Assembly (NCBI RefSeq): GCF_000179635.2
Contig: NC_014833.1
Span: 3,570,001-3,602,000 of the forward strand
Origin: Ruminococcus albus 7 = DSM 20455
GTDB taxonomy: Bacteria > Bacillota > Clostridia > Oscillospirales > Ruminococcaceae
Reading direction: 5' to 3'
Length of the DNA: 32,000 bases
Shown here: positions 12,428 to 30,213 of the stretch, piece by piece
How the letters are laid out: every line of letters begins with the position of its first letter
Numbering within the stretch: position 1 is the stretch's first letter
Made by a program: the position numbers and the translations under genes
The notes under the pieces: model-generated
Databases searched by the model: none
What the model saw: the letters and a program-made list of their open reading frames with translations, nothing else
Told to the model about the DNA's origin: nothing

Positions 12428-13678
12428 TCAGAACTTTTTCTTGCCTTTGACGTATGCTGACAGCAAAGATATATCCGATACATTTACCCTGCCGTCACCG
12501 TTAAGGTCTGCTTTATTTGAAGTACCCAGGGTCTTTTTACCCTTTATGTGTGCAGCTACCTTGGAAATATCTGACACATTGACCGAGCCGTCGCCGTTGA
12601 TATCGCCTTTGCTTTTGCTTGCAGTGGATATCACTTCATAAGCCAGACCGTTTTCCTTTGCATACTGTTCAGCAGCGCTGCCCTTATACACCCTCATTTT
12701 GAAGCCCTTTATCTTGCCGTTATCGTAAAAGCCCAGTGCATCGGGGCTGATCTTTGTAACACTTTTCGGGATAGTTACAGTACCCATAGCGGTGCAGCCG
12801 TAAAAAGCATCATACCATATAGTAGTCAGACTGCTTGGCAGCTGTACATTTCTGAGGCTTATGCATCCGTTGAAAGCGTCAATGCTTATCTCTTTGAGCT
12901 TTGACGGGAACTTTACGCTTGCAAGACCAACACAATCAATGAAAGTATTGGCTTCTATCGAAGTGATATTATCAGGCAGGGATATGCTTTTCAGACGTGA
13001 GCAAAGATAGAAAGCGTTGGCGCCAATAAAAGTAAGTGTACTTGGCAGTGATATGCTTTCAAGGCCCTTGCACTTTCCGAATGCATGTATGCCCAGCTTT
13101 GTAACGCCGCTTGGTACGGTCACATTTCTCAGCGCTCCGCACTCCTCAAACGCATAATCAGGTATCGCCTTCAGACCACTGCTTATGGTCAGCGAGCTCA
13201 GGGATTCACAGCCGCAGAAAGCACTGCTCTCCAGCTTGGTCACAGTGTTGGGCATAGCCACCGAGCGCAGGGATATACAGTTCATGAAAGCCTCTTCCTT
13301 TATCTCCTTCAGACCACTCGGCAGATTTATGCTCTGCAGATTTGCACAATAGAAGAATGCGCATATACCTATACTCTTGATAGTGCTCGGCAGAGTTACG
13401 CTTTTTACGGAATGATTGTTGTCAAACGCGTATTTGCCTATGCTGACTACCGTCTTGCCGTTTATTGAGGAAGGCACCGAAACATTTGCTGCACTGCCGT
13501 TATAACCTGTTATCTCAACTGTATTATCTCCGAATACGATATAATTGAATGAACCGTATACCGAATCTGCACTTGCATTGACCACAGTATCCGTACCTAT
13601 GGGTACCACAGGAACAACTGCACCGCCGAACACCATCATCAGCGCACAAAGACCCGTCGCAACTCTTTTCATTTTCAT
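12428..13678 (-). CDS. Secreted BspA-type leucine-rich-repeat protein with a C-terminal dockerin
   Basis: Start set at MKMKRVATGLCALMMVFGG (signal peptide, GGAAAGAGAG RBS). About 23-aa repeats of the form SV.LPS.LK.IG..AF..C..L. The C-terminus GDINGDGSVNVSDISKVAAHIKG...DLNGDGRVNVSDISLLSAYVKG is two Ca-binding dockerin segments. Confidence 0.85.
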   Translation of the reverse strand: MKMKRVATGLCALMMVFGGAVVPVVPIGTDTVVNASADSVYGSFNYIVFGDNTVEITGYNGSAANVSVPSSINGKTVVSIGKYAFDNNHSVKSVTLPSTIKSIGICAFFYCANLQSINLPSGLKEIKEEAFMNCISLRSVAMPNTVTKLESSAFCGCESLSSLTISSGLKAIPDYAFEECGALRNVTVPSGVTKLGIHAFGKCKGLESISLPSTLTFIGANAFYLCSRLKSISLPDNITSIEANTFIDCVGLASVKFPSKLKEISIDAFNGCISLRNVQLPSSLTTIWYDAFYGCTAMGTVTIPKSVTKISPDALGFYDNGKIKGFKMRVYKGSAAEQYAKENGLAYEVISTASKSKGDINGDGSVNVSDISKVAAHIKGKKTLGTSNKADLNGDGRVNVSDISLLSAYVKGKKKF

Positions 13679-13753
13679 AAAACCACTCTCTTTCCTTTTA
13701 TACTCTATACGCACCTGCTTTTTGCAGATGATTAATATGTAATAATATTTAAC

Positions 13754-13782
13754 ATTATACATCATTTTCCGGTAAATGTCTA
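13754..13782 (-). promoter_or_regulatory. Putative promoter of the LRR-dockerin gene
   Basis: The minus strand reads TAGACA, then 17 nt, then TATAAT. It lies inside the 5' extension of the ORF-track model, which supports the shorter start at 13678. Confidence 0.5.
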
Positions 13783-13926: not shown

Positions 13927-13955
13927 TTGCAAAATCGCTGAAACCGTGATATAAT
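13927..13955 (+). promoter_or_regulatory. Putative promoter of the pdxK-trmL-array-degV transcription unit
   Basis: TTGCAA, then 17 nt, then TATAAT, with a TGa extended -10 element. It lies 38 nt upstream of the pdxK ATG. Confidence 0.6.
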
Positions 13956-13992: not shown

Positions 13993-14853
13993 ATGAATGG
14001 CTGCAAAAGAGTTGCCGCAATACAGGATCTGTCAGGTCTTGGAAGATGTTCGCTGACAGTTATAATACCCACGCTTTCCGCAATGGGTGTGCAGGTTTGT
14101 CCTGTGCCGACAGCGGTGCTTTCCGCACACACGGGTTACAGTGAATTCGTTATCCGCGATCTCACGGATTTCATTCACCCCGCCCTGGAACACTACAAAC
14201 GCATGAATACGCATTTTGACTGCATATACAGCGGTTTTCTGGCTTCTGCCGAACAGATAGATCACTGTCTGGAATTCTTCTCCGCTTACCCAGATGCACT
14301 TAAAGTCGTCGATCCCGTCATGGGCGATGACGGCAAAAGCTACGCCACCTACACAGGCGAACTTTGCAAGCGAATGGGCGAGCTTGTGGAAGTAGCTGAC
14401 ATAATCACCCCCAACATCACCGAAGCGGCTATACTTCTCGGTGAGGAATACCCCTCCATGCCCCTTGGCAGCAGCGATGCAAAATCGTGGCTGGTAAGGC
14501 TCTCGGGGCAGGGTGCGCGCACTGTGGTGATCACCAGCGTGAATCTTGCAGGCGGCGGTATGCACACTATCGGCTACGACAGGGAGACCAACAGTTTCTG
14601 GAAGATACGCAACGATTACGTCAGCGGTGCGCACTATTCGGGCACAGGTGATATATTCGCAAGCGTACTCATAGGCTCGCTCCTTAAAGGCGACAGCCTG
14701 CCGATCGCCATGAACAGGGCTACGGCATTTGCCGAGCTGAATGTCAAGGTGACATACAGCTACCAGCAGCCCTGGACAGAGGGTCTTATGCTTGAAAGCC
14801 AGCTGCCCTGGCTCACAAGCTATCAGCAGCTTGACGGGTATTCTGTGCTATGA
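13993..14853 (+). CDS. pdxK: Pyridoxal/pyridoxamine kinase (ribokinase-like superfamily)
   Basis: N-terminus KRVAAIQDLSGLGRCSLTVIIPTLSAMGVQVCPVPTAVLSAHTGY and C-terminal GTGDIFASVLIG anion-hole motif, both typical of the PdxK/PdxY family. AGAGGGA RBS. Confidence 0.8.
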   Translation: MNGCKRVAAIQDLSGLGRCSLTVIIPTLSAMGVQVCPVPTAVLSAHTGYSEFVIRDLTDFIHPALEHYKRMNTHFDCIYSGFLASAEQIDHCLEFFSAYPDALKVVDPVMGDDGKSYATYTGELCKRMGELVEVADIITPNITEAAILLGEEYPSMPLGSSDAKSWLVRLSGQGARTVVITSVNLAGGGMHTIGYDRETNSFWKIRNDYVSGAHYSGTGDIFASVLIGSLLKGDSLPIAMNRATAFAELNVKVTYSYQQPWTEGLMLESQLPWLTSYQQLDGYSVL

Positions 14854-15473
14854 GTAATATGGATATTTTTGACAGTTCAAGATCGGACTCCCTGCGGGCG
14901 GGGGGGCGGGAAAGCCTGTGTGATAAAGAACAGCAGCTTACCCAAAAAGAACAGCAAAGTCCGCAGGACCGCACTCACCGACTGAACATAGTCCTCGTAG
15001 AACCCCGTATCCCCCAGAACACAGGCAATATCTCCCGTACCTGTGCCGTAACTGGCGCAGCACTGCACATGGTAAGACCTTTCGGCTTTGAGATAGACGA
15101 CAAAAAGCTTAAACGCGCAGGTCTTGATTACTGGGATAAACTGGATATATACTATTATAATAATATAGAAGATTTCTTCGCAAAGAACGACGGCGCGTAC
15201 TTTTTCTTCACTACAAAGGGCAGGCAGGTACACTCCGAAGCTGTATACCCCGAAGACAGACCCGTATACATAATATTCGGCAGAGAGGATGCAGGTCTCC
15301 CCGAAGAACTTCTTTACGCTCATCCCGACGAATGCGTTCGCATACCGATGCGCAACACACTGAGAAGCCTTAACCTGTCCAACTCCGTGGCAATAGCCAC
15401 CTACGAGGTACTCCGCCAGTGGGATTACCCCGACCTCGGCAGAGAAGGCAAGCTTACAAAATATACATGGTGA
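14850..15473 (+). CDS. trmL: tRNA (cytidine/uridine(34)-2'-O)-methyltransferase, SpoU/TrmL family, with an N-terminal extension of about 44 aa
   Basis: LNIVLVEPRIPQNTGNISRTCAVTGAALHMVRPFGF...LKRAGLDYW...IIFGREDAGLP...IPM....RSLNLSNSVAIATYE is the TrmL signature. The ATG overlaps the pdxK stop (ATGA). Confidence 0.85.
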   Translation: MSNMDIFDSSRSDSLRAGGRESLCDKEQQLTQKEQQSPQDRTHRLNIVLVEPRIPQNTGNISRTCAVTGAALHMVRPFGFEIDDKKLKRAGLDYWDKLDIYYYNNIEDFFAKNDGAYFFFTTKGRQVHSEAVYPEDRPVYIIFGREDAGLPEELLYAHPDECVRIPMRNTLRSLNLSNSVAIATYEVLRQWDYPDLGREGKLTKYTW

Positions 15474-15516
15474 CAGATAAGATATATACACCATGATGGA
15501 GGATAACAAAATGAAA
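15453..15516 (+). repeat. Array junction repeat, copy 1 (includes the trmL 3' end, RBS and module start)
   Basis: cttacaaaatatacatggtgacagataagatatatacaccatgatggaggataacaaaatgaaa recurs almost exactly at 16077-16140 and 16656-16719. Confidence 0.9.
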
Positions 15517-16104
15517 ATCAAATATAAATACCAAAGCAAGTTTCTTTCGGTTATCAGGATACTAGGAGTGCTAGTTGTATTACATCCTGGTATAATTAAA
15601 TTAATCGCGACACACGTTCCTTCATCCGCAATACCCATGCCTTCATCCGCGATACCCATGCCAGAAGATAAAACATTAGTTTTAATGATCTTCCTTATGC
15701 CTATTATTATATGGCTTTCCTGCATTGCACTGTTCAGCAATTTGCCTATAGAGATGGTTGCAGATGAATACAAACTAAAAGTCACAGTGCCTTTTCGGGA
15801 AACCATTATAAGCTATTCCGATATTGAAAGTATAAGTCTAGATCACGAGTTCAGAAAGGCAGAAATACGCGGCGCAGACGACTATTACAATGAAATACTG
15901 ACGATAACCGATATAAATAAAAAAGAATATGTATATCACAAAAAAATCGAACTTGATCAAAACAAGGTAGCCAAGAACCCCGAATATATGAAGGAACAGT
16001 TTGAGAACAGCAAGTTCTCAAAGCTGAAAGCGTATATCGAGGAACAAATGAAATTTGAGAAAAGGCTAGGAATAAACTTGCAAAATATACATGGTGACAG
16101 ATAA
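15511..16104 (+). CDS. Array module 1: two-TM protein with a PH-like C-terminal domain (uncharacterised paralog family)
   Basis: Start set at the third ATG (MKIKYKYQ), 8 nt after a perfect GGAGG; the other paralogs start MK..Y.Y. Two hydrophobic helices, then ...ISYSDIESISLDHEF... and a C-terminal FSKLKAYIEEQMK motif. It carries a 16-aa read-through tail relative to module 2. Confidence 0.8.
   Translation: MKIKYKYQSKFLSVIRILGVLVVLHPGIIKLIATHVPSSAIPMPSSAIPMPEDKTLVLMIFLMPIIIWLSCIALFSNLPIEMVADEYKLKVTVPFRETIISYSDIESISLDHEFRKAEIRGADDYYNEILTITDINKKEYVYHKKIELDQNKVAKNPEYMKEQFENSKFSKLKAYIEEQMKFEKRLGINLQNIHGDR
15619..15660 (+). repeat. In-frame 21-bp tandem duplication (2 units) inside module 1
   Basis: ccttcatccgcAatacccatg followed by ccttcatccgcGatacccatg. 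It encodes PSSAIPM twice in the loop between the two TM helices. Confidence 0.9.
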
Positions 16105-16140
16105 GATATAAACACCATGATGGAGGATAACAAAATGAAA
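16033..16140 (+). repeat. Array junction repeat, copy 2 (extended form)
   Basis: tatatcgaggaacaaatgaaat..agaaaaggcta..aaactt.caaaata.acatggtgacagataagatataaacaccatgatggaggataacaaaatgaa is shared with 16613-16719. Confidence 0.9.
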
Positions 16141-16635
16141 GAAAAGTACAGTTATGAATCGCTCAAAGACCTTGAGCCGATGGATGCACTATTGTTCGTT
16201 TCGTTAGCATTGTTTATCATAGCATTAATCAAACGTGAAGCTATTGAAACAAAGGTATTCTTCATGCTGCTCGCCATATCGCTCGTGTTATTTAGCTGCT
16301 GGATAATATATTTAAATCTTCAAGGATCCTTTACCGCTGACGACAAAGCTGTCACATTCGGCAAGTTCTCAAAAAAGAGGATAGAGTATTCTTCGATAAA
16401 AAGCATCGATATTTGCAGATCAACAGTAACGCGCAGGCAAAAACGTAAAAGATATGCAAAGCTTGTCGAGTGGATCACCTTCCACTGCGAGGACGGCGAT
16501 CATAAATTTGCGGGCGTACTGGTCCCGGAACGAGAACGCAGCTCGCCGGGTTCAGAAATGTCTATGTACCATAACGACTGGTCTGTCAGCCCTTTTTCAC
16601 GGCTGAAGGTCTACATCGAAGAACAAATGAAATAA
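16135..16635 (+). CDS. Array module 2: two-TM/PH-like paralog
   Basis: MKEKYSYES..., two TM helices, then FTADDKAVTFGKFSKKRIEYSSIKSIDI, ITFHCEDGDHKFAG and FSRLKVYIEEQMK. GGAGG RBS 8 nt upstream. Confidence 0.8.
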   Translation: MKEKYSYESLKDLEPMDALLFVSLALFIIALIKREAIETKVFFMLLAISLVLFSCWIIYLNLQGSFTADDKAVTFGKFSKKRIEYSSIKSIDICRSTVTRRQKRKRYAKLVEWITFHCEDGDHKFAGVLVPERERSSPGSEMSMYHNDWSVSPFSRLKVYIEEQMK

Positions 16636-16719
16636 TAGAAAAGGCTAATGAAAAACTTACAAAATATTCATGGTGACAGATAAGATATAAACACCATGAT
16701 GGAGGATAACAAAATGAAG
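16613..16719 (+). repeat. Array junction repeat, copy 3 (extended form)
   Basis: Same sequence as 16033-16140, but a TAA stop follows ...EEQMK directly, so the stretch that is coding in copy 2 is non-coding here. Confidence 0.9.
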
Positions 16720-17760
16720 ATCAACTATAATTACAGGAGCAACTTTCTTCCGATCATCAATCTATTAGGACTTTGCATATCGTTTGGCATTATCGGAATT
16801 ATTTCAAGCATATATGATTTTCTGGATGATGACTCAATGTTTTCGATAATAATAACACTTAGCCCTGTATGGTTTGGTATTATATGGATTTCCTGCTATT
16901 TTCTGTTCTGCTATTTGCCCGTAGAAATGGTTGCAGAGGAAAACACATTGACAGTCAAGGTTCTTTTCAGGAAAACCGTTATAAGATATCCCGATATTGA
17001 AAGCATTAGTATAGACCACGAGTTCAAAAAGGCAGAACTGCGCGGCGAACATGACGGGTATTATGAGATACTGAAAATAACCGATATCAATAAAAAGGAA
17101 TATGTATATTTCCGAAAACTCGAACTGGATCAGGACGAGATAGCCAAAGACCCCACACTTCTTACGGAACAGTTTGAAAAAAGTGAGTTTTCTCAGCTGA
17201 AAACCTACATTGAAGAACACACTCCTATCATGCTGGCTGAAAGCGGATATCGTGAAGAAAATGGCATGAAAGAAAACTATGCATATTTTTATAACAATAA
17301 CAAAAGAATAATTATATTCTTAGTATGTACGTTTTCAATGATCATCATACCATGCCTGATCGCCGTAGCCATAAATAATCTGGACGGTGTACTGTTGGCA
17401 TTTATAATATTTAATCTGATACTGATCGGAATGATAATCTTGGCGAATCCGCCTTCAAGCTTTGACGCCGATGATAAACAGGTCAAATTCTCTTGCCTCG
17501 GCAGAAAAACGACCATCAGATATGCTGATATAGAAAAGCTGAAACTCGAACACAGCTATTATGACCGCATCATAAAATCGGGTGAAAAACGCTACGTTGA
17601 GACACTGACCATATCCACAAAAGATATAAACTACGTTTTTTCCGCTAAAATGTATATCGACTATGACAGATCAGCCCAAAACCCAGCACTCTTGACAAAA
17701 CAGTTTGAGGACAGCAAATTCTCGCAATTAAAGCGTTATATCGAGGAACAAATGAAATGA
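16714..17760 (+). CDS. Array modules 3a plus 3b: two complete two-TM/PH-like modules fused in one ORF
   Basis: Module 3a (MKINYNYRS...LKTYIEEH) is a close paralog of module 1. A linker TPIMLAESGYREENG follows. Module 3b begins MKENYAYFY at 17266 and has its own two TM helices, FDADDKQVKF...IRYADIEKLKL and FSQLKRYIEEQMK. Confidence 0.8.
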   Translation: MKINYNYRSNFLPIINLLGLCISFGIIGIISSIYDFLDDDSMFSIIITLSPVWFGIIWISCYFLFCYLPVEMVAEENTLTVKVLFRKTVIRYPDIESISIDHEFKKAELRGEHDGYYEILKITDINKKEYVYFRKLELDQDEIAKDPTLLTEQFEKSEFSQLKTYIEEHTPIMLAESGYREENGMKENYAYFYNNNKRIIIFLVCTFSMIIIPCLIAVAINNLDGVLLAFIIFNLILIGMIILANPPSSFDADDKQVKFSCLGRKTTIRYADIEKLKLEHSYYDRIIKSGEKRYVETLTISTKDINYVFSAKMYIDYDRSAQNPALLTKQFEDSKFSQLKRYIEEQMK

Positions 17761-18230
17761 AAGAAAAATACAACTATGATAATATCAGCGGCGACTATAA
17801 CGGCTACGGCTGTCTTGCGTTTATGGCAGTGGCATTTTTCGGGGCAGCGCATATGTTGCGCACGCCTGATGACAACAATATACTGCTGTATATAGCGGGC
17901 GCTCTTTTTCTGGTACTGTTCGTTTTCTACAAAGGCTACCCTTTCGGGTACTGCTTTTTTGAAGCGGGTGAAAGTTCCGTGACATTTACAAGGCTTTTCA
18001 AAAAACAGACCATCGAGTATTCTTCCATAAAAAGTATAGATATAGATACCGAACTGCGCAAGATGTGGTTCAGAGGGAAAGAGTACAGGCATTATGCCGA
18101 AAGGATCATTTTCCACTGTGATGACGGCGAACATATCTTCGCACTGAAACACAGCAGCGAAAACGAGCCTGAACTCACGAACAGTCAGTTTACAAGGCTG
18201 AAAGCATTTATTGAGGAGAACATGGCATGA
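17757..18230 (+). CDS. Array module 4: two-TM/PH-like paralog
   Basis: MKEKYNYDN..., two TM helices, FEAGESSVTFTRLFKKQTIEYSSIKSIDID, IIFHCDDGEHIFA and FTRLKAFIEENMA. ATGA overlap with the upstream gene. Confidence 0.8.
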   Translation: MKEKYNYDNISGDYNGYGCLAFMAVAFFGAAHMLRTPDDNNILLYIAGALFLVLFVFYKGYPFGYCFFEAGESSVTFTRLFKKQTIEYSSIKSIDIDTELRKMWFRGKEYRHYAERIIFHCDDGEHIFALKHSSENEPELTNSQFTRLKAFIEENMA

Positions 18231-18742
18231 AAGAAGATTACAATTACGTTTTTGCAAGCAAGGAAGATGGTCCGGTAATGGGCTGTTTGGTGACAATGGT
18301 CATCTTTGGCGTTCCATTGATGATCGTTGCGCTGACCGATGACACTATGATCGGCACGCTGTTCTTTATTCTGGTCTTTGCCATAGTGCTTGTCATACTG
18401 TATACATGCAAGGCGAGTTTTTCTGCAGATGAACACACCGTAACTTTTCGCTATCTGTTGAAAAAAACAGTTATAGCCTATGAAAACATCAAAAGCATAG
18501 AAGTAAAGGCAGAATACCGCGAGGACCGCGGAAAATGGATCAACAGGTATTATGCAGAAGTCATAACATTCCACTGTGCAGACGGAAAGGACTATACTTT
18601 CGCAGGCAAGCTGGATACTGACTTTGAAGAGATACTCAAAGACCCGTCCTATCTGCAAAAGCTGACGGAGAACAGCAAGTTTACAAGGCTGAAACACTAC
18701 ATCGAGGATCGCACCCCGATCTTCAACGCCGAAACAATATAA
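18227..18742 (+). CDS. Array module 5: two-TM/PH-like paralog
   Basis: MKEDYNYVF..., two TM helices, FSADEHTVTFRYLLKKTVIAYENIKSIEV, ITFHCADGKDYTFAG and FTRLKHYIEDRTPIF. ATGA overlap with the upstream gene. Confidence 0.8.
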   Translation: MKEDYNYVFASKEDGPVMGCLVTMVIFGVPLMIVALTDDTMIGTLFFILVFAIVLVILYTCKASFSADEHTVTFRYLLKKTVIAYENIKSIEVKAEYREDRGKWINRYYAEVITFHCADGKDYTFAGKLDTDFEEILKDPSYLQKLTENSKFTRLKHYIEDRTPIFNAETI

Positions 18743-18868
18743 ATACATTAAAGAATAATACAGATACAAAAACAGCAGCTACGGCTCAGGCATATTTTCG
18801 GTGATACTGCTGCTTGTGCTGCTGACAGGCTGTGCGAAACTCGCGACTGATGGTAACGAAAGGATATC

Positions 18869-19870
18869 ATGAAAAGAAAATATGAATTCAAAGGCAGGGG
18901 CAGATGGACGACCGTAGTATCGGTCATATTGTTTATACCATTAATGGTCTGGTTCGTGCTGGCTGCCGTATATGACAGCGTTGCTGCAATGGGTCTGTGG
19001 CTGCTGACGCTCATATGTTTCATCGCCATAGATCTGACTATCCCCTGTTATTACGATGCGGGAGATACTTCGGTAACTTTCAGCATACTCGGCAAAAAGA
19101 CCCGTATCGACTACTGCGACATACAGTCTGTGGAAATCAGTTACAGCGAGAACAGAACATCTGTAGATAAGACGATAACCTTTGTGTTCCCTTTTGAAAA
19201 GCTTGTTATACAGACCTATACAAAACGGTATGTATTCTGTGCAAAGCTGAGAGACTTCAGCGGCAGGGGCTGTATGGCTGAACTCAAAGACTATATCGAC
19301 GAGCGGATAGGCTTGAAAGAGTACATATCGTCTATTTGCCCGGAAGATGTACAGATAAGCAATGGTATAAAAGGAAAATTCAGGCACACATCTTTGGCGA
19401 TATATTTGTTTACACTGCCGATGTTAGGATCATTGTTCCTTGCAGAGTACGCAGTTATCGCTGAGATACCATACAGCGAATTCGGCTTATATCTGGGTAT
19501 TTTCCTGCTGAGCTGTATTGGTCTGCTGCTTTCGCTATATGCGCCGTTCCGCTTTGAGGCTGATGAAAGCAGTGTGGTTTTCAAAGAGCTTATCCCGCCC
19601 CGAAAGCGAAGGATATACTACTCCGATATAAAAAGCATTGAGCTTACAAGAGAGTATATCAACTCACGGGGCGAATCACGGATAGAGGAAACTATCATTT
19701 TTCATCTGTCAGGCGGTTCGGTAAGATACACGCAGGATAATATAGGTATAGACCTGCGGAAATGCAGTGATCAACTCAGCGAGATAAGGGATGAATTAAA
19801 CAACAGTTTATTTTCGCATTTAAAGCGATACATAGAAAGTAAAATGGAATACCCCAAGGAGGTAAATTAA
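18869..19870 (+). CDS. Array modules 6a plus 6b: divergent double-module paralog
   Basis: MKRKYEFKG..., two TM helices, YDAGDTSVTFSILGKKTRIDYCDIQSVEI and LKDYIDERIG. A second pair of TM helices follows, then FEADESSVVFKEL...RIYYSDIKSIEL, IIFHLSGG and FSHLKRYIESKM. Confidence 0.75.
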   Translation: MKRKYEFKGRGRWTTVVSVILFIPLMVWFVLAAVYDSVAAMGLWLLTLICFIAIDLTIPCYYDAGDTSVTFSILGKKTRIDYCDIQSVEISYSENRTSVDKTITFVFPFEKLVIQTYTKRYVFCAKLRDFSGRGCMAELKDYIDERIGLKEYISSICPEDVQISNGIKGKFRHTSLAIYLFTLPMLGSLFLAEYAVIAEIPYSEFGLYLGIFLLSCIGLLLSLYAPFRFEADESSVVFKELIPPRKRRIYYSDIKSIELTREYINSRGESRIEETIIFHLSGGSVRYTQDNIGIDLRKCSDQLSEIRDELNNSLFSHLKRYIESKMEYPKEVN

Positions 19871-19871
19871 A

Positions 19872-20744
19872 ATGTCAAAAATAAAGATCATGACAGATTC
19901 AGCCAGCGACATCTCTATCGAGAACGAGAAGAAGTACGAAATTCACGTAGTACCATTCAAGATGAGCATGGGTGATAAAAGCTACACCAGCCGCGTGGAT
20001 TTCGACAACGAGAAGTTCTACAAAATGATGGACGAGTATGACGGCATACCACTGACATCGCAGATAACTGCCTTTGAATTCGCAGAGAATTACAAGGAGC
20101 TTTACAATGCAGGTTATACCGATGTTATCTATGTCAGCATAAACTCAAAGGGTTCTGCCACATACAACAATTCCGTCATGGCAGTTGAGCAGTTTTATGA
20201 GGAAGTACCCGAAGCAAAGGGCAAGTTCAATATCATCAATATCGACGGCAAGGGCTACACAGGCGGTTACGGCTATGCAGTGGTAGAAGCTGCCAAGAAA
20301 GCGCAGAAAGGCGCATCTGTAAGCGAGATAGAATCCTTTATCCGCGATTGGGTGGATAACTGCGTTATATTCTTCGGAATGTATTCTCTGCAATATGCCA
20401 AGAAATCAGGACGTATCCCCGCGGCAGCTGCATTCGTGGGTGAGATAATGGGTCTCCGCCCTGTATCCCGCATACAGCATAATCAGATAACCACCGAAGC
20501 CAAGGTACGCGGTGACAAGGCACTTATCCCCAAGATAATCGAACTCACCGCAGGCGAACAGATACCCAAGACACCTTACTGCGTCGTATACGGCAACGAT
20601 ACCGAAGTCCGTGACGAGATGATACAGGCTATGACCAAAAAGCTGGGCTATCCCCCTGCCGATACTTACCAGATAGGTTCTGAGATAGCAGTAAACGCAG
20701 GTCCAAAGGTCATCGGAATTATATTCAAGTCACAGAACAAGTGA
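19872..20744 (+). CDS. DegV-family fatty-acid-binding protein
   Basis: IKIMTDSASDISIE...VVPFKM..GDKSY...and the overall 290-aa layout are typical of the DegV family. An AAGGAGG RBS sits in the last codons of the preceding array gene (1-nt gap), so the two are co-transcribed. Confidence 0.85.
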   Translation: MSKIKIMTDSASDISIENEKKYEIHVVPFKMSMGDKSYTSRVDFDNEKFYKMMDEYDGIPLTSQITAFEFAENYKELYNAGYTDVIYVSINSKGSATYNNSVMAVEQFYEEVPEAKGKFNIINIDGKGYTGGYGYAVVEAAKKAQKGASVSEIESFIRDWVDNCVIFFGMYSLQYAKKSGRIPAAAAFVGEIMGLRPVSRIQHNQITTEAKVRGDKALIPKIIELTAGEQIPKTPYCVVYGNDTEVRDEMIQAMTKKLGYPPADTYQIGSEIAVNAGPKVIGIIFKSQNK

Positions 20745-20758
20745 TATCATAATACTTC

Positions 20759-20788
20759 GGAGCTGTTTTACTGACAGCTCCTTTTTTA
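20759..20788 (+). terminator. Rho-independent terminator after the DegV-family gene
   Basis: ggagctgt / tttactg / acagctcc followed by tttttt. Confidence 0.75.
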
Positions 20789-25610: not shown

Positions 25611-27125
<1,515 letters not shown>

Positions 27126-27148
27126 TTATTTACTTATAATATCATATA

Positions 27149-27177
27149 ATAATACACGATTTTCTTTGATTTGTCAA
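27149..27177 (-). promoter_or_regulatory. Putative guaB promoter
   Basis: The minus strand reads TTGACA, then 17 nt, then TATTAT. It lies about 55 nt upstream of the start codon. Confidence 0.6.
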
Positions 27178-27455
27178 CAGAAAATTTGCAAAATAAATAT
27201 TAATTTCACCCATGCCGAAAACGCCCTCATATCACAGTTCTGCAGTAATGTATCCATTTTTTTACACTCGCGTAAAGTCCCGATTTTTCGGCAAATTTGT
27301 GCGACACTTACAAAAATCAAACAAGAAATTCTACACTGTGGATATACTTACGGGTATAGCCAAAAAACGTTATCTGAGTTATAATTATCATGTATTAAAT
27401 TATTCACAGAAAGAATGGAGATGTATTGTAAGACGGATACCCATATAGAAGTTTT

Positions 27456-27493
27456 GCCCCCAAGCGTTTAAGCGCTCAGGGGCATTCTTTTTT
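27456..27493 (+). terminator. Orphan plus-strand terminator-like hairpin in a 470-bp intergenic region
   Basis: gcccccaagcg / ttta / agcgctcaggggc (imperfect stem) followed by attctttttt. No annotated plus-strand gene lies upstream. Confidence 0.45.
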
Positions 27494-27593
27494 ATACGGT
27501 TGCTAAGATAAATCAGAATTTATCAGCATAATCCAAAATGATTTGCTATAACATCACATACTTCTTCCCTTGTATCTTTCCCATTATCTTCTC

Positions 27594-28187
27594 TTACAAC
27601 CGTGAAAAAACCACTATTTGCAAATTCATCATAGTGTTTTTGCTGTTGATAAGAGCAAGTCCGCGCCTATAATTCTCCATTACTGCTTCGGGATCATCGC
27701 AGCTATCAATAACATTTAATAGAAAAAGTTTGTCAGGGTCGCTTCTGTCAAAGAAACGCTCAACACTCATAGACTGCGGTGAAAGCATAACTGCAACATG
27801 ATGATAATCTGATATTTCTTTGAGCAAATCTAACGGTATATTGGTATCAACTATAACCGTTTTCTCTCTTGAAATTGAAATAAGTTCTGCTATTTCAAAC
27901 TCCGCAGCTTCTCTCCCGACACTAAATATCCACCGTTCATATTCTTCCGGAGAGCGGGTTACAAAGTCTTTCCAATCAGTAAGATTGTTTACGTAACAGA
28001 TATCAGGCTGTACTTCTGGTGTCGCCACAATATCAGATATTTGACTGTGATAGTTTTCACCGCAGAATATCATGTCATATCGGTCAGCAAGCATTTTTAC
28101 CATCGTTGATTTTCCGGCATAAGCTGTTCCAGTTATAAAATATACATTTTTAAGATAATGCTTTAGAATGTTGTTTTCGATTTTCAT
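27594..28187 (-). CDS. P-loop NTPase / small-molecule-kinase-like protein, function unknown
   Basis: Start set at MKIENNILK (AAGGTGGA RBS 5 nt upstream). Walker A GTAYAGKST sits about 20 aa from the N-terminus. The size of about 197 aa is typical of nucleotide or antibiotic kinase folds. Confidence 0.7.
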   Translation of the reverse strand: MKIENNILKHYLKNVYFITGTAYAGKSTMVKMLADRYDMIFCGENYHSQISDIVATPEVQPDICYVNNLTDWKDFVTRSPEEYERWIFSVGREAAEFEIAELISISREKTVIVDTNIPLDLLKEISDYHHVAVMLSPQSMSVERFFDRSDPDKLFLLNVIDSCDDPEAVMENYRRGLALINSKNTMMNLQIVVFSRL

Positions 28188-28227
28188 AGTAATCCACCTT
28201 GATAAATTCCGATTTATGTTCGTAACA

Positions 28228-28256
28228 ATTATAGCATAACATTGCCGCACTGTCAA
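28228..28256 (-). promoter_or_regulatory. Consensus promoter of the P-loop NTPase gene
   Basis: The minus strand reads TTGACA, then 17 nt (gtgcggcaatgttatgc), then TATAAT. Confidence 0.6.
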
Positions 28257-28302
28257 TAAAAACGCCATAGTACTTCTGACTGTAAATCAGAAATACTATG
28301 GC
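28257..28302 (-). repeat. Second copy (inverted orientation) of the gccatagta...tactatggc hairpin
   Basis: The minus strand reads gccatagtatttctgat-ttacag-tcagaagtactatggc-gttttt. This is the same as 23880-23923 apart from the loop. Confidence 0.75.
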
Positions 28303-28315
28303 TTAAAACTTCTAT

Positions 28316-29215
28316 ATGAGTATCTTTCTTATGAATCGCACATATTTATTTGCTGCCGCAGCGGCACTGATACTTGCAGGCTGCGGTTCGTTGACCGAGC
28401 GCCCTGCGGACAGTAATGAAAGTTCTAAGAACGTAAAGTCCTCTGATACGGCAGTCAGCAGCACAGCCGAGGTATCCTCTGAGGAAACAGAAGAAAGTCC
28501 GGCTGAAGCGCAGGAAGAAAGTTCCTCCGCCGATGACAGCAGTGATGTGACAGATAGCATCGCGGAAACTTCCGATGAGAGCAAAAACGATGGCATGGCG
28601 GGTCAGTTCACAGGCGGACTTGACGATGACGGCAAAGGTCCCGATGAGAACCATTTCGGGACAGAAGTCGGATTTGCTCCCGGTATATGGTGGGCATTCT
28701 GTAACAGCGGCGATATCTACTATGAATTCTCTACAGACGGCACAGGTATGAGGATCTATCAGGCAGACGGCTTCAAAGAAGGGTTCACCTATGAAATGAA
28801 AGACGGCTATGCTGTTTTCTATTTTGCAGGCAACGCAGGGGGCACTGATGAATATACCCGGGCAAAAGCAGAAGACCGCGGTGACGGTGCGTTACTGACC
28901 TTTGAAAATGACAGCCATACCGAGGAACTTGTATACAGAGACAATATCAGCTTTGACGATTTCAGCTTCTACACAAATAAAGAACTTGAAGATATGGCAA
29001 GGGAATACTGCAAGCAGCACAGTGATTCAGGCTATGAACCCGAATTCTGCGATGTTTCACAGTCAGATTCCAATACAGATATAGTTATACACCTATATGA
29101 TATATTTGACGATCATTCAGCCACTGTAGCATGGTACTATGTTGACCGTTTCACAGGCAAAGGCAAGGATCTTATGGATAAGGAAGTTGATCTTTCCACA
29201 GCGCTGAAAGGCTGA
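28316..29215 (+). CDS. Lipoprotein of unknown function
   Basis: Lipobox LILAGC after a hydrophobic stretch, then a long S/E/D-rich linker, then a globular domain of about 190 aa. The start is ambiguous (ATG 28316 or MNRTY at 28331) and neither has a clear RBS. Confidence 0.7.
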   Translation: MSIFLMNRTYLFAAAAALILAGCGSLTERPADSNESSKNVKSSDTAVSSTAEVSSEETEESPAEAQEESSSADDSSDVTDSIAETSDESKNDGMAGQFTGGLDDDGKGPDENHFGTEVGFAPGIWWAFCNSGDIYYEFSTDGTGMRIYQADGFKEGFTYEMKDGYAVFYFAGNAGGTDEYTRAKAEDRGDGALLTFENDSHTEELVYRDNISFDDFSFYTNKELEDMAREYCKQHSDSGYEPEFCDVSQSDSNTDIVIHLYDIFDDHSATVAWYYVDRFTGKGKDLMDKEVDLSTALKG

Positions 29216-29252: not shown

Positions 29253-29289
29253 ATATTAATATCTTTTGATACCCGGGAGGAAATTATAC

Positions 29290-30213
29290 ATGAACAAACT
29301 GATCATGACCGCAGTATCGCTTATATGTGCCTGCAGTATCTCTGCCTATGCAGACGGTGCATCTGCTGCAAAGGGCGATGTGAACGGTGACGGCGCTGTG
29401 ACCATTACTGATGTTTCAAAGATCGCTGCACATATAAAAACTAAAAAAATGATTCAAGGCGAAAGCCTGCAGAATGCCGATGTCAACTACGACGGCAAGG
29501 TAAATATATCAGACCTTTCACTCACAGCAGCTTACATAAAAGGCAAAAAAACTTTTCCTGATGACCCTCGTATCGCTGACGAAACTTTCAAGGGCTATGA
29601 TGCCTTCCTTATGTTCGCTGACGGCAGTATGAACTGGGGCAACTGGAACGGTCAGGGCTATTACAGCGCACCATCCTTCGGTGATGATGCTGATATCACC
29701 AATGACGGTGTCTACAGTGTCAGCATAACCAAAAAAAGCATAACCGCCAAGGACGATACGGGAACGAATCCTTCACTTTTATACGGTTCTGACGGCAGCC
29801 TGCTCCCCGCTAAAGGCTGTACTATGCTCTGTGTAGATATCACAGGTCTTCTCGACGGCACCCTTGCCGCTGACGGAAGTGAGCTTGAAGGTTTCCTTAA
29901 AAGCGGTAATGATGCAAATGTCAATAAACACGTCAAAGGCAAATTCAGGGGAGATGAATTGAATGTGACTGTCACAGGCATAGCCATTGACGGGAACTAT
30001 ATCGAATTTGACCCCTCTAAGATACGCTACGGAAACCTTGATGAAGAGGATAACTGCTATCGTATATGCATAGCTGACCTCCTGTCAGGCTCTGCCGAAG
30101 ATGCAGCCATAGATACCGGCAATCTCAGCTTTAAAAATAGTATCACCGTTGAATTCAGTATATCAGGTATAGATAAAAATGAACATACCTCATATGATGA
30201 TATTTTCGGCTGA
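29290..30213 (+). CDS. Secreted protein with an N-terminal dockerin and a C-terminal domain of unknown function
   Basis: Start at MNKLIMTAVSLICACSISAYA (GGGAGGA RBS). GDVNGDGAVTITDVSKIAAHIK...ADVNYDGKVNISDLSLTAAYIKG are the two dockerin segments. About 215 aa of unassigned sequence follow. Confidence 0.8.
   Translation: MNKLIMTAVSLICACSISAYADGASAAKGDVNGDGAVTITDVSKIAAHIKTKKMIQGESLQNADVNYDGKVNISDLSLTAAYIKGKKTFPDDPRIADETFKGYDAFLMFADGSMNWGNWNGQGYYSAPSFGDDADITNDGVYSVSITKKSITAKDDTGTNPSLLYGSDGSLLPAKGCTMLCVDITGLLDGTLAADGSELEGFLKSGNDANVNKHVKGKFRGDELNVTVTGIAIDGNYIEFDPSKIRYGNLDEEDNCYRICIADLLSGSAEDAAIDTGNLSFKNSITVEFSISGIDKNEHTSYDDIFG

Follow-up and report, generated by a model that had tools for sequence, protein, structure and literature searches.

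The 32,000-nt stretch of the Ruminococcus albus 7 chromosome analysed here (the window) carries, at 15511-19870 on the + strand, an array of six same-strand genes that lie between trmL and degV and encode eight copies of one membrane-anchored module. In each module, a transmembrane (TM) hairpin is predicted to interrupt a pleckstrin homology (PH)-like domain (a "split" PH). Every R. albus-group genome retrieved (nine, the window included) has the family between trmL and degV, in a number and assortment that change from genome to genome. We are confident of this description of the array, as a structural and evolutionary unit at a fixed site; its possible role as a library of immunity cassettes is put forward more tentatively. 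The fold class and the idea of immunity arrays are already known. The family, the bacterial split-PH architecture, and a hypervariable cassette array within a housekeeping operon appear to be undescribed in the libraries and literature searched.

The modules and their transcription unit

An initial annotation of this DNA, made from the sequence alone, had recognised eight copies of one module, and this was borne out: when the double-length genes g3 and g6 were split, eight modules aligned end to end, with K2, A(D/G), I..Y..I, E, and LK..I invariant, and a hidden Markov model built from the family gave exactly eight full-length matches in the window (126-220 bits). The core residues were also unchanged across a set of 60 modules, 59 from the nine trmL-degV loci and one from UBA2864, a tenth genome, where it lies at an unrelated locus. 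The membrane part is indeed the most divergent, as had been claimed, with column pair-identities of 0.10-0.25, compared with values of up to 1.0 for the C-terminal domain. The motifs proposed for the module held less evenly. The N-terminal MKxxYx[YF] is present in seven of the eight modules, the exception being module 6b, which starts IKGKF and has ATA at the position of the other modules' ATG. The strict form of the C-terminal motif was found in only six, with a relaxed LKx[YF]I[ED] in all eight, and the block FH[CL]x[DG]G, said to occur in five of the eight, was counted in four. The features of the unit are as follows.

13927-13955, +: promoter-like site ahead of pdxK (TTGCAA-17-TATAAT with an upstream TG; a match to the consensus only)
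13993-14853, +: pdxK-like pyridoxal/hydroxymethylpyrimidine (HMP) kinase gene (Pfam Phos_pyr_kin, 1.5e-22), the conserved upstream flank
14850-15473, +: trmL-like SpoU-family RNA methylase gene (Pfam SpoU_methylase, 4.7e-35), its last codons within the repeated junction
15450-15510, +: junction copy 1 (trmL 3' end, spacer, GGAGG ribosome-binding site), with a 21-mer at 15466-15486
15511-16104, +: g1, module 1 (197 aa)
16074-16134, +: junction copy 2, with the identical 21-mer at 16090-16110
16135-16635, +: g2, module 2 (166 aa), of the ITFHCEDG type
16653-16713, +: junction copy 3, with the identical 21-mer at 16669-16689
16714-17760, +: g3, double-length (348 aa), fused modules 3a (16714-17265) and 3b (17266-17760)
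17757-18230, +: g4, module 4 (157 aa), with an ATGA overlap with g3
18227-18742, +: g5, module 5 (171 aa), with an ATGA overlap with g4; used for the structure model
18743-18868, +: 126-bp spacer between g5 and g6, in this genome only, with a relic open reading frame (ORF) inside
18869-19870, +: g6, double-length (333 aa), fused modules 6a (18869-19363) and 6b (19364-19870)
19872-20744, +: DegV-family gene (Pfam DegV, 1e-57), the conserved downstream flank, starting 1 nt past the g6 stop
20759-20781, +: intrinsic-terminator-like hairpin (9 pairs, then a T run), which ends the unit

The flanking matches (Phos_pyr_kin kinase, SpoU methylase, and DegV) place the array inside a housekeeping unit, as had been proposed. 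The site at 13927-13955 is a candidate for the operon promoter, and the hairpin at 20759-20781 is the sole good + strand terminator of the unit, in agreement with the earlier statement that none precedes 20759. Both ATGA overlaps that had been pointed out, g3/g4 and g4/g5, are real. The MK codons chosen in the initial annotation were kept as the starts, because the ATGs further upstream (MMEDNK) share bases with the GGAGG ribosome-binding site. A higher A+T content of the array was confirmed relative to the upstream genes (G+C 0.37-0.44 vs 0.51-0.53 in pdxK/trmL) but not relative to degV (0.44, about that of the 3' end of the array); further downstream of degV, the G+C content climbs to 0.47-0.49. 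The Rfam search of the window returned no element.

Predicted fold and family assignment

The AlphaFold2 model of g5, built with a 35-sequence alignment (pLDDT 88.3, pTM 0.78), consists, in this order, of a strand (2-8), two TM helices (12-36 and 40-60), six strands (63-128), and C-terminal helices (133-168). When it was compared with the PDB by Foldseek, the matches were PH/PTB folds (Rtt106, Pob3, SSRP1, PTB, ICAP1, and GRK2-PH), at probabilities of 0.84-1.0 and E-values of 2e-3 to 4e-2; these E-values are modest and the structural-alignment scores (TM-scores) low because the hairpin was part of the query. The PH-like nature of the C-terminal block, suspected in the initial annotation, is thus supported by both the model and the structural matches. 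With one strand before the hairpin and six after it, followed by the C-terminal helices, the model has the seven-stranded bent beta-sandwich and C-terminal alpha-helix that define the PH-like superfold. In the model, the conserved N-terminal MKxKY would be a strand of the same sheet, the TM hairpin would be an insertion into the PH-like domain, and the C-terminal helix (S.F..LK.YIE) would cap the domain of its module.

In such an arrangement, the N-terminal strand and the domain must lie on one side of the membrane. The hydropathy profile of the 60 modules and counts of charged residues gave short, acidic or neutral hairpin loops and Lys/Arg residues at the N-terminus and after TM2, from which we infer, by the positive-inside rule, an N-in/C-in topology with a cytoplasmic PH domain. 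For g6, the model comprised two separate units, each a TM hairpin with a PH-like domain, and a disordered linker between them. Searches with Foldseek against viral structures yielded unnamed small beta-proteins only, and the family profile against PDB sequences yielded noise only. In g1, a 21-nt tandem duplication (window 15606-15647) gives SSAIPMP-SSAIPMP in the predicted outer TM1-TM2 loop, which is the longest exposed loop among the modules of the window.

The same split is known from EROS/CYBC1, the eukaryotic NOX2 chaperone, in which the PH domain is "separated by H1 and H2" and continues with six strands and a C-terminal helix (PMC11161758). Foldseek aligned it with the module over 167 columns (E 3.6e-3, probability 0.97), but at a TM-score of 0.33 and 8% sequence identity, and with no profile link (no Pfam match to EROS/Ycf4); homology is not established. 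EROS is also a single-copy eukaryotic gene, unlike the modules of the array. It shows how a hairpin and a PH domain can clamp a membrane protein.

The proteins of the array gave nothing above the cut-offs of Pfam, NCBIfam, PADLOC, and PHROGs. The assignment to bPH_2 (YdbS/YdbT) suggested in the initial annotation was not upheld, since PF03703 had no match at E<=1 in the six proteins or at E<=0.01 in 100 relatives. Below threshold, the window proteins matched bPH_5 and bPH_6 (13-17 bits) and EbsA; matches to Pox_LP_H2 (24 bits, under the cut-off), DUF423, DUF986, and PycTM were treated as chance or TM-driven. The best window scores against bPH_5 (PF10882) and bPH_6 (PF10756) were 16.6 and 17.0 bits, against gathering cut-offs of 22.5 and 22. 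Peripheral relatives do exceed the Pfam cut-offs (P0184, bPH_5, 57 bits; P0214, bPH_6, 27.5 bits), and an hhalign comparison of the family with P0184 gave 84% probability (E 7.8e-6). The peripheral proteins that pass are a few double-unit proteins, with family-profile E-values of 5e-8 to 1e-5 over the whole library. On these profile comparisons, the relation to bPH_5/bPH_6 is one of remote homology and not of membership, and the modules are a new family of the bacterial PH clan, distinct from YdbS/YdbT.

Both neighbouring groups share features with the modules. The bPH_2 proteins also have two N-terminal TM helices and a cytoplasmic PH domain, and multi-unit proteins occur in both (three units in YdbT, two in g3 and g6); in the module, however, one strand precedes the hairpin. 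The bPH_5 and bPH_6 proteins, membrane-associated and of unknown function, likewise carry a PH-like beta-domain behind a TM hairpin, and from these the family differs by its own N-terminal MKxKY strand before the hairpin and its S.F..LK.YIE C-terminal helix. No report of hypervariable tandem arrays was found in the literature on bPH_5/bPH_6.

With regard to the extent of the family, a word-indexed search retrieved 77 proteins, all from Ruminococcus or Oscillospiraceae and none (0/77) with a Pfam domain. In an exhaustive profile search of 1.84 billion representatives, 211 passed a threshold of E<=1e-3 and 95 passed the stricter E<=1e-10, with lengths of 150-190 aa in almost every case; at 50% identity, the family has at least 211 clusters, which extend to other lineages. 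One relative, P0163 (L024 144-1172, 342 aa), has the PH-like part without the TM hairpin and about 200 extra N-terminal residues without a Pfam match, which could reflect either a soluble fusion or an error in gene calling. Its N-terminus looked SUKH-like by eye; this link was dropped, as there was no Pfam match at E<=10 and no significant similarity to the SUKH-like protein encoded near another member (in L025, see below).

Turnover of the modules at a fixed site

The survey of relatives rested on a subfamily alignment, as a search for loci with a broad alignment had found no stretch conserved enough, and it is therefore biased towards R. albus-like loci. Among the nine trmL-degV intervals, the number of modules ranges from two to 11.

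RUG13404: 2 modules
RUG10798: 3 modules
R. albus 8: 4 modules
bin128: 5 modules
Window genome: 8 modules
AD2013: 8 modules, in eight separate genes
RUI259: 8 modules, with the g6 fusion as in the window
KH2T6: 11 modules, with 2 + 3 fused
AR67: 11 modules, one of them broken, with 2 + 3 fused

The 60 modules fall into 35 clusters at 65% identity, in an order that is mosaic across genomes, and g4 has no relative above 39% identity in the other nine genomes. The flanks are far more uniform: pdxK is 90.6-99% identical in amino acids in nine related genomes, and degV 86-99% in relatives. In all the R. albus-group loci retrieved, degV is directly 3' of the array, with start and stop adjacent or overlapping. 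The claim of a diversifying set of paralogs is supported by this variation in copy number and repertoire. Strict conservation of the arrangement in relatives had been named in the initial annotation as an argument against an arms race; the arrangement is not conserved, and the pattern is that of orphan arrays, whose tandem, diversified paralogs differ in number and type from strain to strain. Only one of the 60 modules is broken (AR67, L009 14449-14941, split into ORFs of 75 and 66 aa). As the other 59 are intact ORFs, the genes have been kept intact.

At the DNA level, conservation is higher in the junctions between modules than in the module interiors; each junction is made up of the 3' helix motif, a spacer, the ribosome-binding site, and the first codons. 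An exact 21-mer, CATGGTGACAGATAAGATATA, which covers the last codons of trmL and the spacer, is present in three copies, one where trmL ends and one each after g1 and g2 (0 expected by chance), and it is repeated in KH2T6 and AD2013 too. Each copy also carries a weak promoter-like match, GTGACA-16-CATGAT (9/12, as a sequence match only). The tail of g1, NLQNIHGDR*, is a copy of the trmL 3' end in another reading frame, and the internal linker of g3 holds an out-of-frame relic of a module 3' end, LKADIVKKMA*. In the 126-bp spacer, the relic ORF has GTG at 18801 as its sole possible start (ILLLVLLTGCAK...) and a stop that overlaps the g6 ATG; its frame reads ...KNSSYGSGIFSVILLLVLLTGCAKLATDGNERIS*, with the lipobox LTGC. 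It resembles what is left of a lipoprotein signal peptide and was in none of the 24 other loci compared, and the spacer is probably a recombination scar. As read from the DNA, these junction features are scars of unequal crossing-over and of illegitimate joins at the conserved junctions.

The fusions are polymorphic. Double-length relatives (P0001 and P0078) occur in other assemblies, and the g6 fusion is common to RUI259 and P0003, while 6a and 6b are separate genes in AD2013. Assembly error as a source of the double-length genes was ruled out by the fusions in independent assemblies (P0001, P0003, and RUI259) and by the loss of the ATG in 6b.

Some modules are closer across genomes than the genes that flank them. 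The module of g2 (WIN_2) and module 1 of R. albus 8 are 90% identical in nucleotides (dS 0.21), with flanks at 80-82% (dS 1.2-1.6), and WIN_8 (module 6b) is 95% identical to its counterpart in RUI259, with flanks at 88-90%. Other modules are themselves mosaic: in the comparison of WIN_1 with AD2013, successive 90-nt windows from 5' to 3' were 65, 40, 62, 92, 87, and 83% identical, between flanks at 93-96%. These two observations together indicate that cassettes have been exchanged between lineages and that recombination has taken place within modules. We conclude that the array grows, shrinks, and is reshuffled through recombination at the DNA-conserved junctions, including exchange between lineages, and that loss of the stop codon between neighbouring modules produces the fusions.

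The ratio of nonsynonymous to synonymous substitution (dN/dS) was computed by the NG86 method. It was 0.02-0.13 in the flanks (pdxK 0.02-0.07, trmL 0.07-0.13, and degV 0.04-0.09) and 0.21-0.54 in individual module pairs. Pooled by region over 16 independent pairs, the ratio was highest in the hairpin, at 0.64 (0.49-0.77), followed by the C-terminal helices, at 0.32, and the PH strands, at 0.28 (0.23-0.34). Purifying selection is relaxed in the modules, and most of all in their membrane part.

An origin in mobile elements was considered and rejected. With module 2 as the tblastn query, no homolog was found in 50,697 phage records or in 72,556 plasmids, and none was found in IMG/VR, which was searched with patterns of the module-2 subfamily only.

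Candidate functions and neighbouring genes

Arrays of orphan immunity genes are known from the staphylococcal DUF443 (TsaI) and DUF600 (EsaG) families and from the acquired interbacterial defence clusters of Bacteroidales. The array described here resembles them in its tandem diversified paralogs, in the variation of their number and types between strains, in the exchange of cassettes, and in an expression that does not depend on a linked toxin. A second precedent comes from bacteriocins. The membrane-anchored PH proteins DdE and DdF are needed for the export of enterocin DD14 and for avoiding self-poisoning, and LnqC/D of lacticin Q and Orf7/8 of aureocin A53 were reported as YdbS/YdbT homologues (PMC8657885); more generally, PH-domain membrane proteins recur in leaderless-bacteriocin clusters (PMC11580447). 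Among bacterial membrane PH proteins, a role has been tested only for those of the DdE/DdF (bPH_2) type, in bacteriocin export and self-protection (PMC8657885). Because the pattern of turnover fits conflict between microbes, and because of this bacteriocin precedent, we rank first the reading of the array as a cassette library of membrane-anchored immunity or resistance binders directed against membrane-acting antagonists. By analogy with these systems it is a real possibility, although one that we hold to be somewhat short of probable. Under this reading, the fast-evolving hairpin, and perhaps the PH domain, would give each module its own target among membrane-inserting or membrane-delivered antagonists, for example a bacteriocin or toxin of a competing rumen strain, and the array would amount to a set of immunity or resistance specificities transcribed together and constitutively.

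Twelve further genomic contexts, R. albus-group loci among them, were examined for neighbours, a small sample relative to the 211 clusters. Outside the R. albus group, in an unrelated genome (L020/L021), a tandem array of three members (L020 7607-8992) lies between a VanY gene and genes for an OmpR-type response regulator and a histidine kinase, with SdpI/SdpR-like and Imm7 genes on the same contig, 7-8 kb away. In L025 (10001-11774), the member P0103 is followed by an overlapping gene of 124 aa and then by that for a 281-aa protein with a sub-threshold match to SMI1/KNR4 (SUKH-1; E 0.003); a SUFU-family gene and a MacB/YknX pair are within 8 kb. A distant member, P0126 (L027 9343-9918, L028 3430-4005), belongs to a Ter stress-response cluster, where stop and start codons overlap; the order is YceG_bac, TelA, TerD, TerD, member, PRTase_2/TRSP, ATPgrasp_Ter, and C-C bond lyase. 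StiP and PELOTA genes are also in this cluster, with no TerC gene in view, and P0126 may be a membrane component of it. Other single members adjoin a DUF1385, HAD, DUF3592, or PBP-like gene. The DUF3592 genes (L022 1384-1821, L023 1091-1528, and L009 17567-18109) stand by members in two unrelated contexts, which may be a coincidence.

Several of these results weigh against an immunity library. The main weaknesses are the missing cognate toxin and the dN/dS values. No toxin, bacteriocin, type VII secretion system (T7SS)/LXG, or ATP-binding cassette (ABC)-exporter gene adjoins a family member in the window or in the twelve contexts, and the whole 32,000-nt window, as had been stated earlier, holds no toxin, secretion, or bacteriocin gene. 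Orphan immunity arrays are homologous to immunity genes that adjoin toxins, and for this family no such pairing was found in the twelve contexts. The immunity-type neighbours are only loosely associated (SUKH-1 two genes off; SUFU, Imm7, and SdpI at 7-8 kb). With dN/dS under 1 in all regions, there is no demonstration of positive selection, and a fast-evolving TM anchor may simply be weakly constrained. In addition, almost no part of the protein is exposed outside the cell, and the family is outside bPH_2, to which the experimentally studied DdE/DdF and YdbS/T belong. The member in the Ter cluster points to a stress or adaptor role rather than to specific immunity, and the immunity model gives no account of the tight, conserved coupling to degV. 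The precedent itself differs from the array: ydbS and ydbT are a fixed pair in bacteriocin or sigma-W-type units, while the array is variable and all the R. albus-group loci have housekeeping flanks. A survey of polymorphic toxins lists no PH-fold immunity family (PMC3482391).

A more specific form of the immunity library would be a new polymorphic cassette system made from a split-PH membrane clamp, the bacterial counterpart of the EROS architecture. In this form, which we regard as doubtful, different membrane-inserting toxins would be told apart by the fast-evolving hairpin, and the PH domain and the C-terminal helix, both conserved, would serve all modules as a scaffold or as a surface for oligomerisation; strains would acquire new specificities from one another through recombination at the conserved junctions between modules.

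The resemblance to EROS can also be taken in another direction, in which the paralogs are client-specific membrane chaperones or adaptors, or belong to a membrane stress response, each serving different clients. An EROS-like hairpin would grip the TM helices of the partner and the PH domain would hold its cytoplasmic part, or, as adaptors, the modules would tether cytoplasmic factors such as DegV/FakB or Ter-type machinery to the membrane. The identical topology of EROS (PMC11161758) and its full-length Foldseek match are in favour of this, as are the translational coupling of the distant member within the Ter cluster, the constant position of degV directly after the array with adjacent or overlapping start and stop, and the purifying selection on the PH domain (dN/dS 0.28). 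Even so, we consider it rather unlikely. A housekeeping set should not range from two to 11 copies, with a near-complete turnover of types, between flanks that are 93-96% identical; the TM-score to EROS is only 0.33, with no sequence link to the EROS or Ycf4 families; and in the contexts examined, degV was linked to the family in the R. albus group only. Another defensive role, as anti-phage membrane proteins (superinfection exclusion or abortive infection) with the array as a small defence island in which each module blocks the DNA entry of, or senses infection by, a different phage group, seems unlikely. Hypervariable copy number, mosaic content, movement of cassettes between lineages, and a G+C content below that of the upstream genes would all suit such an island, and small two-TM proteins are typical of exclusion systems. 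The classical ter operon has been linked to phage and colicin resistance, and one distant member is in a Ter cluster; PADLOC gave weak matches to the Pycsar two-TM effector PycTM (E 0.0076 and 0.042). Nevertheless, no PADLOC or PHROGs match was significant (PycTM at 0.0076, KwaA at 0.0051, and BnzA at 0.0012 are at chance level), the phage, plasmid, and IMG/VR searches with module 2 queries or patterns found no homolog, and the R. albus arrays adjoin no known defence gene, integrase, or prophage.

The bacteriocin precedent would also allow a device for export and self-protection, equivalent to DdE/DdF or LnqC/D, in which PH-oligomerised modules form a membrane conduit for leaderless or small peptides made by the cell itself. 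According to a proposal by Xu et al., bacterial PH proteins bound to the membrane assemble into rings acting as transporters or pores (PMC2817789), both DdE and DdF are required for the export of EntDD14 (PMC8657885), and the fused double modules resemble the multi-unit YdbT. We find this very unlikely all the same, since the array and its surroundings leave no room for a small peptide gene (intergenic gaps of 30-126 bp), no ABC transporter or regulator accompanies it, the number and type of subunits in an export machine are not expected to vary between strains, and there is no bPH_2 match. A hidden gene for a leaderless peptide was discarded for the same shortness of the gaps; the sole small ORF, that of the 126-bp spacer, is the lipoprotein-signal-like relic that is absent from the other loci. 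Finally, the array could be the near-neutral product of a recombination-prone repeat with no specific function. This would account for a dN/dS several-fold above that of the flanks, for junction repeats that favour unequal crossing-over, and for the relic sequences and the broken module. It is nonetheless the least credible of the explanations considered, and we give it hardly any weight, for 59 of the 60 modules are intact, values of 0.28-0.64 still mean purifying selection, the core residues are invariant over the 60 modules, and other lineages maintain the family in no fewer than 211 clusters at 50% identity.

Although PH domains anchored to the membrane are common in bacteria, a function is known for almost none of them. 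In an important rumen fibre degrader, the trmL-degV interval amounts to a natural experiment, with one scaffold, dozens of types, one fixed chromosomal site, and traces of cassette exchange. If the modules determine specificity against bacteriocins, toxins, or phages, a new fold would enter the immunity repertoire, and they would help to explain strain-level competition among rumen Ruminococcus; if the clamp form of the immunity library is true, this would supply a general function for bacterial membrane PH domains, whose role has been an open question since 2010. Should they be chaperones or adaptors, the extreme turnover at the locus itself would need an explanation. Either way, the family merits a Pfam entry, and the interval is a handy hotspot for strain typing.

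The rest of the window is of housekeeping character (a sugar ABC system, an LRR-dockerin protein, PtsI, CobD, IMPDH, FolD, and Lgt). The LRR-dockerin protein, a BspA-type leucine-rich-repeat (LRR) protein with a C-terminal type I dockerin, is encoded on the - strand just upstream of the operon (12428-13765), and relatives have dockerin proteins of other sizes, or unannotated proteins, at this position. A second stretch of low G+C content (0.36-0.38) extends over 27000-29215 and holds two divergent ORFs without a Pfam match, 27594-28268 (-) and 28316-29215 (+); it is followed by the gene for a dockerin protein (29266-30213).

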